DNA from: Dehalococcoidia bacterium
GTDB lineage: Bacteria > Chloroflexota > Dehalococcoidia > UBA2979
Assembly: GCA_009692765.1 (NCBI GenBank)
Contig: SHYQ01000003.1
Coordinates: 1-50,335, forward strand
Length of the DNA: 50,335 nt
Direction of reading: 5' to 3'
A program made the position numbers and the translations under genes. The stretch's first letter is position 1. Each line of letters starts with the position of its first letter. Shown here one piece after another: positions 21,657-43,980 of the stretch. A model generated the notes under the pieces. The model did no database searches and was not told the origin of the DNA. It saw only the letters and a program-made list of their open reading frames with translations.

Positions 21657-22760
21657 TCAGTCCCTTGCGCAGGCGGAAGCGGCGAACCGTTCCACGTTCG
21701 CATTGTGCACGGCCAGCGTCGACGAGAAGAGGTGCGTCCGATCGCAGGCGGCCGACGCCACGAAGTAGAGGTAGTCGACCGCGGCCGGATTGACCACCGC
21801 CTTGATCGATTCGAGCCCGGGGTTCGCGATCGGGCCCGGCGGGAGGCCGCGATTCCGGTACGTGTTGTACGGCGATTCGATCGCCAGGTCGCCGACGGTG
21901 AGGCGCGGCTTCCAGTAGCCGAAGCGCTCGAGGTTGGCCGGCACGCGCGACACGGCGAACTGCACGGTGGGGTCGGCCTGAAGCGGGACATCCTGCGCGA
22001 GGCGGTTGAGGAACACCGCCGCGATCAGCGGCCGCTCCGCCGCCGAGGCGGTCTCCCGCTCGACGATCGAGGCGAGCGTGACGATCTGGTGCAGCGTCAG
22101 GCCCCGCGCGCGACCGGCGGCCGTCATCTCCGCCGTCACCTGCTTGCCGAAGGCGTCCAGCATCGACTGCACCATGCCCGCCGCCGTGGTCTTCTCGTCG
22201 AAGGCGTACGTCGCGGGCAGCAGGTACCCCAACAGGCTCGCCCCGCCGGGCCGCCCCTCGAGGAATGTCGCCTGCCGAGGGGCGGCCAGCGCCGCGTCCC
22301 AGTCCGCGCGGCTCGCGATGCCCTCCTTCTGCAGCGTGTCGCCGATCTCTTCGTTCCGGAGCCCCTCGCGGAAGGTGACCACCTGCGGTCGGTTGGGCCC
22401 GGCGGCGAGGAGGCGGACGATCTCCGCCGTGGGCATGTCGGACGTGAACCGGTAGCGGCCGGCCTGCAGTTTCGGCGCCAGCCCGGCGAAGTCGAGCAGC
22501 GCGCGCAGCGCCTTGCCGTCGCTCGCGATGCCCGCTCGCTCGAGTTGCTCCACGATCTGCTCCGCGCTCGATCCCGGCGCGAGATCGACGCCGGTGGGGG
22601 CGTTCGCCGGTACCGCGCTCTTCGGCGGCGGGCGGCTCTGCACGCCGCTCGCCAGCACGCCCGGCACGCCCCACACCGCCACGCCGAGAGCAACGAGGAT
22701 CACGGCGGTGTAGATCGCCACCGCGATCGTCGCGCGGGCGCGGACGTTACTGCTCGACAT
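21657..22760 (-). CDS. mltG: Endolytic transglycosylase MltG (YceG family)
   Basis: N-terminal TM, EGLR.EEI, GYLLPATY, LASIVERE, NRL...LQADPT, SPYNTY...GLPPGPIANPG. Confidence 0.9.
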   Translation of the reverse strand: MSSSNVRARATIAVAIYTAVILVALGVAVWGVPGVLASGVQSRPPPKSAVPANAPTGVDLAPGSSAEQIVEQLERAGIASDGKALRALLDFAGLAPKLQAGRYRFTSDMPTAEIVRLLAAGPNRPQVVTFREGLRNEEIGDTLQKEGIASRADWDAALAAPRQATFLEGRPGGASLLGYLLPATYAFDEKTTAAGMVQSMLDAFGKQVTAEMTAAGRARGLTLHQIVTLASIVERETASAAERPLIAAVFLNRLAQDVPLQADPTVQFAVSRVPANLERFGYWKPRLTVGDLAIESPYNTYRNRGLPPGPIANPGLESIKAVVNPAAVDYLYFVASAACDRTHLFSSTLAVHNANVERFAASACARD

Positions 22761-23252: not shown

Positions 23253-25928
23253 CTACGACGTCAGACGGTCCTTCACCGCCTGCAACGCCGCCGCGAGCGA
23301 CTCGTCGATCTTCGAGGCGTCCTTGCCGCCGGCCTGCGCGAGTTGCGGCCGGCCGCCGCCGGCGCCGCCCGCGATGTTCGCCGCGATCTTCACGATCTCC
23401 GCCGCGCTCAACCCGCGCGCCACCACGTCATCGGTCGCGGCGACGATGAATGTCGGCCGCCCCTGCACATCCGCGCCCAGCGCGATGAACGCGGAGCCGA
23501 GGCGGTCGCGCAGCCGGTCCACCATCGGACGCAGCGCGTCGGCGGATTCCACCTGCACGCGCGCCACCAGCACGCGCACGCCGCTGATCGTCTCGGCGCT
23601 GTCGGCGAGGCCGTCCGCCGTGCCCGCCGAGGCGCGGCGCTCCAGTTCCTCGAGGCGGTGGCGCTCCGTGGCCAGTTGCTCCTCCAGCGCCGCGACGCGC
23701 TCCAGCACCAGCGTGGGCGGGGCGCGGAAGTGGCGCGCCAGCGTGCTCACCAGGTCGCTCCGCTCCTCGACGTAGCGTTCCGCCTCCACGCCGGTCAGCG
23801 CCTCGATGCGCCGCAGGCCGGCGCCGATGCTGCTGTCCGAGACGATCAGCAGCATGCCGACCTGCCCGGTGGAGTGGAGGTGCGTGCCGCCGCACAGTTC
23901 GCGGCTGTAGCACTCCATGGTGTGCGCGCCGGGCGCGTGCCCGCGGGAGTCGCAGTACTCCACCATGCGCACGCGCGTGGTGTAGCGATCCTCGAAGAAC
24001 GCGATCGCGCCGCGCTCGATCGCCTCGTCGTAGTCGAGTTCGAACGTCGCGCTCTGGATGTCGGCGCGCACCTTCGCGTTCACGATGCGCTGGATGTCGG
24101 TCATCTGCTCATCGGACGGCGCTTCCGGGTGCGTGTAGTCGAAGCGCAGGCGGTCCGGCCCCACGTACGAACCCGCCTGCCGGACGTGCGTGCCCAGGAC
24201 GCTGCGCAGCGCCGCATGCAGCAGGTGCGTCCCGGTGTGGTTGCGCGCGGTGTCCTGGCGACGCGCACCATCGACCAGCGCCGTCACGTGCGCGCCGACG
24301 CCGATGGCGCCCGCCACCACGCGGCCGATCTGGACCACCGTCTCGCCATAGCGATGCGTGTCCTCCACGCGGAAGCGGCCCGTGCCGGTGATGATCTCGC
24401 CACGGTCGCCGACCTGGCCGCCGCCTTCCGGATAGAACGGCGTCGTGGCCAGCATCACCTCGCCGCTCTGCCCCTCCGTCAGCTCCTGTACCGCGAGATC
24501 GTCTGCGAAGAGGTGCACCACGGCCGTCTTCGCCTCCAGGGCGTCGTACCCGACGAACTCCGTCGGCGCGACAATCGCCGCGTAGCGCATCGCGCGATCG
24601 TCCTGCGCGTTCGTGAACGTCTCTTCACCCTTGGAGCGCGCGCGCTGCTGCACCATCTCCTCGTCGAAGCCGGGGCGATCCACCGCGTAGCCGATCCCCT
24701 GCGCGACCTCGATGGTCAGCTCCGGAGGCAGGCCGTGCGTGTCGTACAGTACGAACATGTCGCGGCCGGGGATGCGCTTCGACGCCTGTTCCCGCGCGAC
24801 GATCTCGTCCAGCAGCTGCAGCCCGCGATCGAGCGTCGCCTGGAAGCGCGCCTCCTCGAGCCGCACGATGCGGCCAATGAACTCCCGCTGCTCCCCGAGT
24901 TGCGGGTGCGCGGCCATCGAATGATCGATGGCCGCATCGACGACCCGCGCGAGGAACGGCTCGCGGACGCCAAGGCGGTGGCCGAAGTAGACGGCGCGGC
25001 GCAGCAGGCGACGCAGCACGTAGCCGCGCCCCTCGTTGCTCGGCAGCACGCCATCCGTGACGAGGAAGGCGAGCGCGCGGGCGTGCTCGGAGATCGCCCG
25101 GAGGCCCCGCGCGATCTCCGGCTGTTCTGCCGGGTCGTACACCCGGCCGGTGACGCGCTCCGCTGCGGCCAGCACGCCTCGCAACTCGTCCGTCCCGTAC
25201 ACGGCGCGCACGTCCTGCACGACCGACGCTAGGCGCTCGAGGCCGGCGCCGGTGTCGATGTTCGCGGCGGGCAAGTTGGAGCGTGAGCCGTCCTCCTCGC
25301 GGAAGTACGTCATGAACACGAGGTTCCAGATCTCAAGGAACCGCCCGCAACCGACGTCCGGGTGGCAGGTGTCGCGCGCGCAGTCCGCGCAGCCCGCCGT
25401 CTTGCCCCAGTCGTAGTGCAGCTCGGAGCACGGCCCCATCGGTCCGGTGTCGCCCGGGGGCCCCCACCAGTTCCCCTGCTCCGCCGTATAGCGCAGGATG
25501 CGCGAGGCAGGCAGGCCGAGGGCCGCCCAGTGCGCCGCCGCCTCGTCGTCGTCTGTGAACACCGTGGCCCAGAGGCGCGCCTTCGGCAGCCCCAGGACCC
25601 CGGTGAGGAACTCCCACGCCCACGGGATCGCCTCGGACTTGAAGTAGTCGCCCACCGAGAAGTTGCCAAGCATCTCGAACAGCGTCAGGTGGCTGTCGTC
25701 GCCCACCACCTCGACGTCGGTGGTGCGAAAACAACGCTGGATCGAGGTCAGGCGGCGGGCAGGCGGCTCCTCCAGCCCCATGAAGTAGGGCTTGAACTGT
25801 ACCATCCCGGCGGTCGTGAACAGGAGCGTCGGGTCGCCGTGCGGCACCAGCGAGGACGAGGGGATGCGTCGGTGACCGCGAGCCTCGAAGAAGGCGAGAA
25901 ACGCGCGCCGGATCTCGTCGATGGTCAC
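23253..25928 (-). CDS. alaS: Alanine--tRNA ligase
   Basis: LLFTTAGMVQFK, FEMLGNFS.GDYFK, LEIWNLVFM, IDTGAGLER, RGYVLRRLLRRA, HTGTHLLHAAL, ELCGGTH; start trimmed to GTG 25928. Confidence 0.96.
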   Translation of the reverse strand: MTIDEIRRAFLAFFEARGHRRIPSSSLVPHGDPTLLFTTAGMVQFKPYFMGLEEPPARRLTSIQRCFRTTDVEVVGDDSHLTLFEMLGNFSVGDYFKSEAIPWAWEFLTGVLGLPKARLWATVFTDDDEAAAHWAALGLPASRILRYTAEQGNWWGPPGDTGPMGPCSELHYDWGKTAGCADCARDTCHPDVGCGRFLEIWNLVFMTYFREEDGSRSNLPAANIDTGAGLERLASVVQDVRAVYGTDELRGVLAAAERVTGRVYDPAEQPEIARGLRAISEHARALAFLVTDGVLPSNEGRGYVLRRLLRRAVYFGHRLGVREPFLARVVDAAIDHSMAAHPQLGEQREFIGRIVRLEEARFQATLDRGLQLLDEIVAREQASKRIPGRDMFVLYDTHGLPPELTIEVAQGIGYAVDRPGFDEEMVQQRARSKGEETFTNAQDDRAMRYAAIVAPTEFVGYDALEAKTAVVHLFADDLAVQELTEGQSGEVMLATTPFYPEGGGQVGDRGEIITGTGRFRVEDTHRYGETVVQIGRVVAGAIGVGAHVTALVDGARRQDTARNHTGTHLLHAALRSVLGTHVRQAGSYVGPDRLRFDYTHPEAPSDEQMTDIQRIVNAKVRADIQSATFELDYDEAIERGAIAFFEDRYTTRVRMVEYCDSRGHAPGAHTMECYSRELCGGTHLHSTGQVGMLLIVSDSSIGAGLRRIEALTGVEAERYVEERSDLVSTLARHFRAPPTLVLERVAALEEQLATERHRLEELERRASAGTADGLADSAETISGVRVLVARVQVESADALRPMVDRLRDRLGSAFIALGADVQGRPTFIVAATDDVVARGLSAAEIVKIAANIAGGAGGGRPQLAQAGGKDASKIDESLAAALQAVKDRLTS

Positions 25929-26065
25929 GTGGCGCGCTCGTTTCGGCAGTTCTGCATCGTACGGCCCAGTGTGCAGGATGGGCCGCACATGGTGCACGGT
26001 GCTGCATACTGGGCACCATCATGGGCCGCAGCGTGGGCCGCATCATGGAGGTCCGCTGAAGGGCG

Positions 26066-26168: not shown

Positions 26169-27635
26169 ATGACCACCCGCGCGCGCGGTGCGCCCCCCCT
26201 CTCCTCGCCGAAGACCACGGCGGTGACCTCGCTCGCGGGTTGGACGGCGCTCGTGCTCGCCCCGGGCGACGCGGTACGCATGCAGTCGGCGACGCCGACC
26301 GTGCTCCACGCCGTGGCTGGCGTCCCGATGCTCCGCCTCGTCTGCGATCTGCTGCGAGAGGCCGGCTGCGCCCGCACCATCGTCGTCGCGGGCGCGCCAC
26401 CGGCGTCGGTCGCCGCCGTGCTGGGCGACGGCCTCCGTGACAGCATCGGCGACGGCCTCGATATCGTCGACGCGCAGGACGCCGAGGGGTCGGCGAACGC
26501 CGCGCTCCGGGCGCGGGCCGCGGCCGGCGAGCACCGCAACGTCCTGATCCTGCGCGCCGACATGCCGCTGATCAGCACGCGGACGCTCCGCGAACTCGCC
26601 GGGCGACACCTGGGCGAGTCACGCGTGCTGACCTTCCTCACGGCGTACCTCACCGACCCGCACGGCTTCGGCCGGATCCTGCGCCGCAACGGCGAGGTGC
26701 GGGGAATCATCCACGAGCGCGACCTCACCGGGGCGATGCGCGGCCAGCCGGAGGTCAACGCGGGCCTTTACGCCGCCGACGCGCAGTGGCTCTGGGAGAC
26801 GCTCGCGGCGCTGCCGGCAAACGCGAATACCGACGCGCTGGGCGACCTCGTCGCGCGCGCCGTCGAGCGCGGCGGCGTCGAGGCGTACCAGGTGCACGAA
26901 TCCATCGAGGTCGCCCAGGTCGGCGACCGTCTGCAGCTGGCGCAGGCCGATCGCATCCTGCGCGACCGGATTCGCGACCGCCTGATGCGGGAGGGCGTGA
27001 CGCTGATCGATCCGCCCACGATCTACATCGACGCCGGGGTCGAGATCGCGAGCGACACGGTGCTGCTGCCCGGCACGCACGTCACGGGCAGGACGCGGAT
27101 CGGCAGCGGCTGCCGCATCGGCCCGAATGCGATCCTGCGCGACATGGTGATCGGTGATCGCTGCGAGATCGGCGGCTCCACGCTGGAGGGCTCCACCCTG
27201 GGCGAGGCGGTGACGGTGGGCCCCTACTGCCACGTCCGGCCGGGATCGACGATCGAGCGCGAGGTGCACCTCGGCAACTACGCCGAGGTCAAGGCCTCCC
27301 GCATCGGCGCGCGCACGGCAGTGGGCCACTTCTCCTACATCGGCGACGCCGATGTGGGCGCGGACGTCAACGTGGGCGCCGGATCGATCACCGCGAACTA
27401 CGACGGCGAGGCGAAGCACCGCACGGTGATCGGCGACGGCGTGCACCTGGGCAGCGACACGATCATGGTCGCCCCCGTGACCGTCGGACGGGGGGCGCGC
27501 ACCGGCGCCGGGGCGGTGGTGGTGGACGATGTGCCGGAAGGCGCTACCGTCATCGGCGTCCCCGCCCGGGTCCGCGCCGCCGGCCCTCCTGCCACAGGAG
27601 ACGCGGGCACAGGAGAAGGAGGTCACCCGGCGTAG
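26169..27635 (+). CDS. glmU: GlmU-family protein: intact-looking acetyltransferase domain, degenerate uridylyltransferase domain
   Basis: Hexapeptide repeats with GNYAEVK, HFSYIGDA, NVGAGSITANYDG; N-terminal LAPGDAVRM..TPTVLH replaces LAAGxGTRM..LPKVLH. Confidence 0.88.
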   Translation: MTTRARGAPPLSSPKTTAVTSLAGWTALVLAPGDAVRMQSATPTVLHAVAGVPMLRLVCDLLREAGCARTIVVAGAPPASVAAVLGDGLRDSIGDGLDIVDAQDAEGSANAALRARAAAGEHRNVLILRADMPLISTRTLRELAGRHLGESRVLTFLTAYLTDPHGFGRILRRNGEVRGIIHERDLTGAMRGQPEVNAGLYAADAQWLWETLAALPANANTDALGDLVARAVERGGVEAYQVHESIEVAQVGDRLQLAQADRILRDRIRDRLMREGVTLIDPPTIYIDAGVEIASDTVLLPGTHVTGRTRIGSGCRIGPNAILRDMVIGDRCEIGGSTLEGSTLGEAVTVGPYCHVRPGSTIEREVHLGNYAEVKASRIGARTAVGHFSYIGDADVGADVNVGAGSITANYDGEAKHRTVIGDGVHLGSDTIMVAPVTVGRGARTGAGAVVVDDVPEGATVIGVPARVRAAGPPATGDAGTGEGGHPA

Positions 27636-27656: not shown

Positions 27657-28985
<1,329 letters not shown>

Positions 28986-42141: not shown

Positions 42142-43980
42142 ATGTGTGGCATCGTCGGCTACACCGGGCACCGCCCCGCCGGACCGATCGTCCTCGACGG
42201 CCTCCGCCGCCTCGAATACCGGGGGTATGACTCCGCAGGGCTCGCGCTCTTCGACGATCAGCACCAGCTCTTCGTCGCGCGCGCGACCGGCAAGCTGGAC
42301 GCGCTGCTCCAGCAGGTGGAGGGCACGCTGCCCCCGGCGGTGGCGGGCATCGGCCACACGCGCTGGGCCACGCACGGCGAGCCGAGCGACCGCAACGCCC
42401 ACCCGCACCTGGACCCGGATGGCAACGTTGCGGTGGTGCACAACGGCATCGTCGAGAACTTCGAGGACCTGCGCCGCCGCTACGCGCGCGGCCCGTTCCT
42501 CTCCGACACCGACACCGAGGTGCTCGCCCACATGCTCGCGACCCGCGTCGAGGACGGCCTCGACCTGCTGGTCGCGCTGCGCAGCGTCGTGGCGGAAGCG
42601 CAGGGCGCGTTTTCGATCGTCGCGATCTCGCGGCACGAGCCGGGGCGCATCGTGGCGGCGCGCGCCGGCAACGCCGGCGGCATCGTGATCGGCGTCGGCG
42701 AGGGCGAGCACCTGGTCGCCTCCGACCTGAGCGCGCTGCTGCCGCACACGCGGCGCGTCACCTTCATGGAGCCGGGCGAGTTCGCGGACGTGCGCGCGGA
42801 CAGCGTGGCCTACGTGGACGCCACGGGCACACCGATCAGCAAGCGCGTGGAGGTACTGCCCTACGACCCGGTGGCCGCGGTCAGAGGCCACTACAAGCAC
42901 TTCATGCTCAAGGAGATCTTCGAGCAGCCGGATGCGGCGCTCGATGCGATTCGCGGGCGCTACCAGACGCGGCCCGCCCGCGTGGTGTTCGAGGGGCTGC
43001 CGCTGGACGAGGCGCGCGCCCGGTCGCTGACGCGCGTCGTGCTCGTCGGCATGGGCACCTCGATGCACGCCGCGATGGTCGGGCGGCACTACTTCGAACG
43101 CTTCGCGCGCCTGCCCGCCGAGGTCGATAACTCCGCCGAGTTCCGCTACCGCCAGCCGGTGCTGGACGCGAACACGCTGGTGGTCTCGGTCGCGCAGTCG
43201 GGCGAGACGGTGGACACGCTGGCCGCGATGGACGAGGCGCGGCGCGCCGGCTGCCTGCAGATCACGCTCTGCAACACCCCCGGCGCGCAGACCACGCGGG
43301 TCGCCGACGGCACGATCCTGCTGCGCGCCGGCCCGGAGATCGCCGTCGCCAGCACGAAGACGATGGTCGCCTCCATGCTGCTGCTCCACGGCCTCGCGCT
43401 GCACCTCGGGCGGCTGCGCGGCACGCTGGACGCGGCGGTGGAGGCGCAGCAGATCGAGGCGGCGCTGCACCTCCCGTCGGCGATCGGGCAGGCGCTCGAC
43501 GGCGCGCCGCGGATCGAGGAGATCGCCAGCCGCTATGCGAACTACGAGGACTTCCTGTTCCTCGGACGGGGACTCGGCTATCCGATAGCGCTGGAGGGCG
43601 CGCTCAAGCTCAAAGAGGTCTCGTACATCCACGCAGAGGGCTACGCGGCCGGTGAGATGAAGCACGGCCCGATCGCGCTCATCGATGAGCACATGCCGAC
43701 GCTGGCGATCGCGCCGCGCGACGAGGTGTTCGACAAGATGCGCTCGAACATCGAGCAGGTGCGCGCGCGTCGCGGCCGCGTGATCGCCGTCGTCTCGCGC
43801 GGCGACCACAGCCTGGAGGGCGTCGCGAACGACATCATCGAACTGCCCGACGTCGACCCGATGCTCGCGCCGATCGTGACCGTCGTGCCGCTGCAACTGC
43901 TGGCGTACTACATCGCCACGCGCCGCGGCGCGGACGTCGATCAGCCGCGCAACCTCGCGAAGACGGTGACGGTGGAGTAG
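42142..43980 (+). CDS. glmS: Glutamine--fructose-6-phosphate aminotransferase
   Basis: MCGIVG, EYRGYDSAG, GHTRWATHG, SQSGETVDT-like, ASTKT, EMKHGP, DVDQPRNLAKTVTVE. Confidence 0.96.
   Translation: MCGIVGYTGHRPAGPIVLDGLRRLEYRGYDSAGLALFDDQHQLFVARATGKLDALLQQVEGTLPPAVAGIGHTRWATHGEPSDRNAHPHLDPDGNVAVVHNGIVENFEDLRRRYARGPFLSDTDTEVLAHMLATRVEDGLDLLVALRSVVAEAQGAFSIVAISRHEPGRIVAARAGNAGGIVIGVGEGEHLVASDLSALLPHTRRVTFMEPGEFADVRADSVAYVDATGTPISKRVEVLPYDPVAAVRGHYKHFMLKEIFEQPDAALDAIRGRYQTRPARVVFEGLPLDEARARSLTRVVLVGMGTSMHAAMVGRHYFERFARLPAEVDNSAEFRYRQPVLDANTLVVSVAQSGETVDTLAAMDEARRAGCLQITLCNTPGAQTTRVADGTILLRAGPEIAVASTKTMVASMLLLHGLALHLGRLRGTLDAAVEAQQIEAALHLPSAIGQALDGAPRIEEIASRYANYEDFLFLGRGLGYPIALEGALKLKEVSYIHAEGYAAGEMKHGPIALIDEHMPTLAIAPRDEVFDKMRSNIEQVRARRGRVIAVVSRGDHSLEGVANDIIELPDVDPMLAPIVTVVPLQLLAYYIATRRGADVDQPRNLAKTVTVE

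Follow-up and report, generated by a model that had tools for sequence, protein, structure and literature searches.

A GlmU ortholog from Dehalococcoidia with an intact acetyltransferase domain and a degenerate, probably non-catalytic uridylyltransferase domain

In bacteria, GlmU is regarded as the essential enzyme through which UDP-GlcNAc is universally made, and it is an antibiotic target. The locus described here lies in a window of 50,335 nucleotides (the whole stretch of DNA analysed) from a Dehalococcoidia bacterium, and raises the question of how an organism would make this precursor when the uridylyltransferase half of its GlmU appears to have lost its catalytic residues. An earlier note, covering the span 26169–26960 (residues 1–264 of the product, P0001, i.e. 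the N-terminal domain and linker), had proposed either a monofunctional GlcN-1-P acetyltransferase, UDP-GlcNAc perhaps having to come from another enzyme, or an enzyme of changed nucleotide specificity. The first of these fits all of the evidence assembled below, which is computational throughout: we consider it probable that P0001 is a GlcN-1-P acetyltransferase with a pseudo-enzyme N-domain, that uridylylation falls to a separate PF00483-type nucleotidyltransferase, and that the dead domain is retained non-catalytically. The source genome (G000) comprises 67 contigs totalling 1.26 Mb, is 75.6% complete and has about 70% G+C; its closest named relatives are Dehalococcoidia MAGs, and all genomes compared with it are, like G000 itself, metagenome-assembled bins.

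P0001 is encoded by a frame whose start position is conserved among homologs (Table 1). The protein scores 399.6 bits against the NCBIfam model TIGR01173, exceeding the equivalog cut-off of 366.85, and scores under the cut-offs of the other GlmU models (NF0109xx); among solved structures it comes closest to GlmU from M. tuberculosis (E 7e-86), S. pneumoniae and E. coli. An AlphaFold2 model (36 homologs, mean pLDDT 91), in which each domain is folded with confidence, has the two-domain GlmU layout of a Rossmann-like nucleotidyltransferase domain, a helical arm and a left-handed beta-helix, and Foldseek matches it to GlmU structures with TM 0.82–0.85 over about 450 residues. Pfam recognizes the N-domain through a weak MobA-like NTP_transf_3 match (49.6 bits, residues 27–148), and PF00483, the usual sugar-1-P nucleotidyltransferase model, gave no match to P0001 at E<=1.

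Table 1. Features of the glmU locus and of related genes in the window.
Feature	Coordinates	Strand	Basis or remark
mltG (YceG), peptidoglycan lytic transglycosylase	21687..22589	-	PF02618, 276 bits
alaS, divergent upstream neighbour, marker of the ancestral locus	23253..25997	-	flanks glmU in the family
glmU ortholog (P0001), 488 aa, intact ORF	26169..27635	+	ORF, TIGR01173, model, homolog start
N-terminal nucleotidyltransferase-fold domain, residues about 26–250, apparently catalytically degenerate	26244..26918	+	9/21 active-site matches
Former signature loop, LAPGDAVRMQSATPTVLH against LAAGxGTRMxSxxPKVLH	26256..26309	+	Thr44 for catalytic Lys; Asp34 in phosphate-binding loop
QVGD in place of GVNN/QVNx	26916..26927	+	Mg-binding Asn (E. 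coli N227) is Gly252
Left-handed beta-helix GlcN-1-P acetyltransferase domain, residues about 276–465, intact	26994..27563	+	Hexapep, 88.7 bits
CBS-domain CorC/HlyC-type gene, downstream synteny marker	27657..28985	+	flanks glmU in the family
glmS (GlcN-6-P synthase), first pathway step	42145..43977	+	TIGR01135, 719 bits, over cut-off

The uridylyltransferase site was scored at 21 active-site positions in E. coli numbering, with E. coli GlmU from NC_000913 as reference and a position list that we take to represent the E. coli, S. pneumoniae and M. tuberculosis GlmU structures. P0001 agrees with E. coli at 9 of these; 73 comparison GlmUs from Actinomycetota, Dormibacterota, Acidobacteriota and other phyla agree at 17–21, with G16, R18, K25, Q76 and E154 each present in 73/73 and N227 in 72/73. 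The degenerate motifs quoted in the earlier note (LAPGDAVRM, TPTVLH, AEGSANA, RAD, GFGR, ALGD and QVGD) are all present, and alignment with E. coli GlmU bears out the loss of the catalytic Lys (K25→T; Thr or Ala among clade members) and of the Mg-binding Asn (N227→G). The signature thus reads LAPGDAVRM...TPTVLH, which departs from the uridylyltransferase signature with its catalytic Arg and Lys through A13→P, G16→A and T17→V as well, and puts an Asp into the phosphate-binding loop (position 15). Further replacements affect the uracil-Gln region (Q76→A, T82→S, G83→A), Y139 (to F), E154 (to H, with a Glu one residue later, the alignment here being ambiguous by one residue) and the GlcNAc-contacting Tyr and Thr (Y197→A, T199→G), such that the set of uracil/sugar residues and Mg ligands (Q76, G81, T82, E154, N169, Y197, T199, D105, N227) is incomplete; G81, D105, G140, R141, N169 and G171 are kept. 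The note had also held that Arg and Asp are retained, which stands for D105 and only in part for the Arg: R18 (R37 of P0001) persists across most of the genus, and several orthologs have Gly, Ala, His, Pro or Val there or lack the residue. In M. tuberculosis GlmU, K26A abolishes uridyltransferase activity and leaves acetyltransferase activity (PMC4619583).

The acetyltransferase half is conserved, as had been noted: R333, E349, K351, H363, Y366, N377, N386, K392 and S405 are kept in P0001 (9/9), all clade members likewise hold 9/9 of the catalytic and substrate residues, and 64% of acetyltransferase-domain columns are invariant in the degenerate clade. The C-terminal fragment of M. tuberculosis GlmU is by itself an active acetyltransferase (PMC4619583), and the best reading of the residues retained in P0001 is that its own beta-helix would acetylate glucosamine-1-phosphate. 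Bifunctional GlmU (TIGR01173), as known from E. coli, M. tuberculosis and S. pneumoniae (PDB 1HV9, 3SPT, 1G97), has the same architecture, fold and pathway context as P0001 at 37–40% identity, with identical acetyltransferase catalytic residues. P0001 differs by replacements in the signature loop and at the catalytic Lys, the uracil Gln, one of the Mg ligands and the GlcNAc-contacting Tyr/Thr, and is probably monofunctional.

The source genome holds one GlmU homolog, and each of seven other genus genomes (72–93% complete) holds exactly one, degenerate in every case. Six of the seven are 79–86% identical to P0001 and share its degenerate motifs; G006, the remaining one, has degenerated along a different course, its identity to P0001 being 46% over the N-domain and 83% over the C-domain. 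The sister genus (G017, locus L013) also carries a degenerate GlmU. These degenerate sequences are monophyletic (SH-aLRT 99) in the full-length tree and in a tree of the C-domain only, and their clade is nested within the canonical GlmUs of the same family, in nearly all members of which, canonical or degenerate, glmU is flanked by alaS and corC. Because this gene order is kept across the family and the tree places P0001 inside the family GlmUs, P0001 is a positional ortholog of GlmU. In a search of 5.8 billion proteins, sequences of the degenerate type, with the reading frame intact, fell into about two dozen clusters at 90% identity; where the source gives these homologs a name it is 'bifunctional ... 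GlmU'. As a description of the uridylyltransferase half this label is probably incorrect, and metabolic reconstructions relying on it would be misled.

We define a pseudo-enzyme domain operationally, as one whose catalytic positions have been freed from constraint while the fold is still under purifying selection. The 12 canonical GlmUs compared from the family show no variation at 19 of the 21 active-site positions (mean entropy 0.08), compared with 18% of the other N-domain columns being invariant (entropy 1.16); across nine degenerate sequences only 4/21 are invariant, and the 21 positions are on average more variable (mean entropy 0.75) than the remainder of the domain (0.60). For comparisons inside the genus, Nei-Gojobori dN/dS comes to 0.08–0.31 for the N-domain and 0.08–0.32 for the C-domain, values that are approximate, dS being 0.4–0.8 and partly saturated. 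By entropy and dN/dS the N-domain of P0001 has both properties of the definition, and as a whole it is under purifying selection and not decaying. Comparison of P0001 with a canonical relative gives 54% identity over the N-domain and 74% over the C-domain, canonical pairs being about equal between domains, which points to an acceleration of the N-domain on the stem of the degenerate clade. Only seven N-domain substitutions are fixed in genus and sister genus (R15D, P79A, G83A, N103R, L106M, Y139F and N227G), and G006 departs from six of these, sharing L106M only; such a pattern is what loss of catalysis should leave and is unlike that expected for a new specificity. Two relatives (G019, L017; G024, L015) are intermediate, keeping the loop, Lys, Gln and Asn and lacking Y197, T199 and E154, which suggests that the sugar pocket relaxed ahead of the loss of catalytic residues. 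These two belong to a sizeable clade (P0026–P0033 and others) in which the catalytic loop, Lys, Gln and Asn persist and the Y-L-T-D sugar motif and E154 are lost, and whose sugar specificity may differ.

Might the N-domain nonetheless still be a nucleotidyltransferase, using substitute residues to act on another NTP or sugar phosphate, or to make UDP-GlcNAc much more slowly? The retention of D105, N169, G140, R141, mostly R18, and a Glu beside E154 makes residual or altered activity possible; purifying selection has kept the fold intact, genus and sister genus share two fixed changes of charge (R15→D and N103→R), and the S. aureus GlmU, which carries the single change N169S, is impaired and not dead (bioRxiv 10.64898/2026.06.23.733835). 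We nevertheless regard such altered chemistry as unlikely, since the catalytic Lys, Gly-rich loop, uracil Gln, Mg-binding Asn and sugar-contacting Tyr/Thr are all lost, an Asp now sits inside the phosphate-binding loop, and even R18 has given way to Gly, Ala, His or Pro in several orthologs. The ortholog alignment that the note had called for further reveals that the positions vacated by catalytic residues are unconserved within the clade, with G006 differing at most of them; had a new specificity arisen, different residues would be expected to have become fixed in the pocket, yet the pocket is the most variable part of the domain, and the suggestion of changed nucleotide specificity is therefore disfavoured.

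Under the preferred reading of an acetyltransferase with a pseudo-enzyme N-domain, this domain would keep the nucleotidyltransferase fold and have lost UTP-Mg binding and uridylyl transfer, a loss that we infer from the residues replaced, and selection would maintain it for a non-catalytic role, putatively in trimer folding or stability or in partner docking. A point against this reading is that the N-domain is kept by selection although, in M. tuberculosis, the C-terminal fragment acetylates without it. Catalytically inactive nucleotidyltransferase paralogs are known in human GMPPA (a regulator of GMPPB; PDB 7D72) and E. coli GalF, which resemble P0001 in that a sugar-1-P nucleotidyltransferase fold is kept under selection after loss of catalysis; GMPPA and GalF are separate subunits with shown regulatory roles, whereas the dead module of P0001 is fused to a predicted active acetyltransferase. 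P0001 would as such illustrate cleanly, in a natural protein, how a catalytic domain can become a conserved pseudo-enzyme module. A literature search for pseudo-enzyme forms of GlmU returned nothing.

An alternative of very low probability is that a canonical glmU has been missed in incomplete bins and that the degenerate gene is a spare paralog. The incompleteness of the source bin (75.6%) would allow for this, and the sister-genus bin G017 does hold both types of copy, but the degenerate gene sits at the ancestral alaS/glmU/corC locus, and the search for a second GlmU, another check that the note had proposed, found one in 0/8 genus genomes (72–93% complete), whose missing fractions multiply to a value of order 1e-7 if independence is assumed. 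In G017 (reported contamination 3%) there are two complete alaS-glmU-corC loci, one degenerate (L013, G017:C44) and one canonical (L038, G017:C10), with the alaS and corC of the canonical copy less similar to those of the window. Since each glmU copy has its own alaS and corC, and alaS is normally single-copy, we take this bin to be a mix of two organisms and reject the reading of its second GlmU as a paralog.

A demand for UDP-GlcNAc is indicated by the peptidoglycan genes. Both glmS and mltG lie in the window, as the note had stated, and tblastn with E. coli queries located a dcw cluster on contig C54 of the source genome (ftsI, murF, mraY, murD, ftsW, murG, murC, ddl, ftsA, ftsZ); murE is missing from this incomplete bin and is present in three genus mates, and murG is present in another genus genome (G001). 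The source genome also has two murA homologs (C46:24854-26098 and C26:7921-9156), each about 40% identical to E. coli MurA. That the gene is instead a decaying relic, neither half of which matters, in a lineage losing peptidoglycan in the manner of the wall-less Dehalococcoidales is hardly credible, for although several class members lack both GlmU and MurG (those without GlmU are also without MurG, and are presumably wall-less Dehalococcoidia), about two dozen clusters at 90% identity retain an intact frame, dN/dS is about 0.1–0.3 in both halves, the acetyltransferase site is perfectly kept, and the genus has a full dcw cluster together with murA, murG, murE, glmS and mltG. Given a uridylyltransferase half without its catalytic residues, no second GlmU, and peptidoglycan genes whose products consume UDP-GlcNAc, some other enzyme is needed to make it.

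The route that we propose on the preferred reading would begin with GlmS, yielding GlcN-6-P, and continue through an archaeal-GlmM-like phosphohexomutase (contig C55) to GlcN-1-P, which P0001 would acetylate to GlcNAc-1-P; a separate PF00483-type sugar-1-P nucleotidyltransferase, P0002 or P0003, would then form UDP-GlcNAc. No searched family genome reached the cut-off of the bacterial GlmM model TIGR01455, and the mutase on C55, of the sole phosphohexomutase type found in the source genome and its relatives, scores 291.6 bits on the archaeal GlmM model TIGR03990 (cut-off 439) and 169.7 bits on the bacterial one.

Candidates for the uridylylation step were sought among known families. UDPGP/UAP (NagU-type) proteins, PF01704, were not found in the source genome or in G001–G003 and G009 (G000 75.6%, genus mates 90–93% complete), and tblastn of one Chloroflexota PF01704 protein against G000 gave nothing (best E 0.05); the same search yielded strong matches in 3/151 Chloroflexota genomes. 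NagU/UAP was accordingly rejected as the partner, this positive control elsewhere in the phylum having worked, and the missing activity should come from another family. Surveys with PF00483 and PF12804, which answered the note's call to look for other sugar-1-P nucleotidyltransferases, left only two others in the genus, P0002 and P0003, besides MocA-like and probably IspD-like proteins.

P0002 (contig C55; listed ORF 379 aa, about 349 aa from the likely start Met31) combines a nucleotidyltransferase domain and a short beta-helix. Among solved structures it comes nearest to human GMPPB and to a UTP-glucose-1-P uridylyltransferase that we take to be of the cyanobacterial CugP type, and it scores 140 bits on the archaeal GlmU model, below cut-off, a ManC-like model scoring higher. 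The gene lies directly upstream of the sole phosphohexomutase gene, an arrangement that recalls the archaeal glmU-glmM pair; the two genes together span C55:19033-21602 (L121:5034-6644 and L002:1039-2175, both minus). P0003 (contig C62; about 310 aa from the likely start) is RmlA-like and bears a pyrimidine-type Gln motif, VQxEPKGSGDA; its neighbours (a semialdehyde dehydrogenase, FAD oxidoreductase, methyltransferase and HAD protein) hint at neither cell-wall nor rhamnose synthesis, and gene context was discarded as a clue. Either protein could be the UDP-GlcNAc maker, and we put the likelihood of each at roughly one third; these would be the only two plausible candidates for an essential step that the lineage appears to assign to another uridylyltransferase. 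An extra nucleotidyltransferase specific to the clade was ruled out, since relatives with canonical GlmU also have both types (one such genome, G009, has no P0003 ortholog), and no clade-specific active-site switch was seen in the P0002 or P0003 orthologs.

How does this arrangement relate to known departures from the GlmU route? In S. aureus most UDP-GlcNAc comes from a eukaryote-like uridylyltransferase, NagU, and many NagU-bearing bacteria hold only parts of GlmU, including acetyltransferase-only GlmUs (bioRxiv 10.64898/2026.06.23.733835, a June 2026 preprint). The S. aureus pair and P0001 are alike in keeping the acetyltransferase half and outsourcing uridylylation (here by inference), but differ in the extent of damage, which is wholesale in P0001 and confined to a single residue in S. 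aureus; the uridylyltransferase domain of P0001 is also of full length, in contrast to its deletion in the partial GlmUs of NagU-bearing bacteria. If NagU is one exception to GlmU, the present lineage appears to be another, and one without NagU too.

The archaeal route to acetamido sugars uses adjacent genes for GlmM and for an RmlA/ManC-like GlmU (MJ1100/MJ1101; ST0452, PDB 2GGO/5Z09). The source genome resembles it in that the mutase is archaeal-GlmM-like and is encoded beside P0002, a gene for a nucleotidyltransferase with a left-handed beta-helix. It differs in that both mutase and P0002 score under their family cut-offs, P0002 is without the long acetyltransferase helix, and the mutase/P0002 pair also occurs in relatives with canonical GlmU. 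It is conceivable, if somewhat short of an even prospect, that peptidoglycan-making members of the class have a third bacterial route to UDP-GlcNAc, independent of both GlmU and NagU for uridylylation and built from a PF00483 RmlA/ManC-type nucleotidyltransferase and an archaeal-type GlmM; the resulting redundancy would have allowed the GlmU uridylyltransferase half to decay, apparently three times, and the dead domain would have taken on a new non-catalytic role in the genus.

The two further decays are represented by murG-positive genomes. In G015 (same family; L171, G015:C16) the GlmU N-domain matches at 4/21 positions, and in G025 (another family; L173, G025:C6) a 379-aa protein with a shrunken N-domain likewise matches at 4/21, the acetyltransferase site being perfect in both. 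The converse is found in G027 (L172, G027:C12), also murG-positive, whose GlmU is uridylyltransferase-only (20/21) with a truncated beta-helix. All three fall apart from the genus clade in the C-domain tree, with weak resolution, and those of G015 and G025 apparently represent two more N-domain degenerations in Dehalococcoidia, separate from that of the genus. A nucleotidyltransferase shared by the degenerate lineages was looked for and dismissed, there being no consistent ortholog: G015 has a P0003 ortholog, and G025 only a 27%-identical relative.

Two other family members deserve mention. In G022 (L170, G022:C23), a 1.2-Mb AT-rich genome, GlmU is the sole PF00483 protein and keeps R18, K25, Q76 and N227, which is consistent with redundancy being a precondition for decay. 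The glmU locus L032 (G014:C5:88536-92870), of the same GTDB family, departs very strongly in composition from its relatives, with a G+C content of 36.7% against about 68–75% in the other members.
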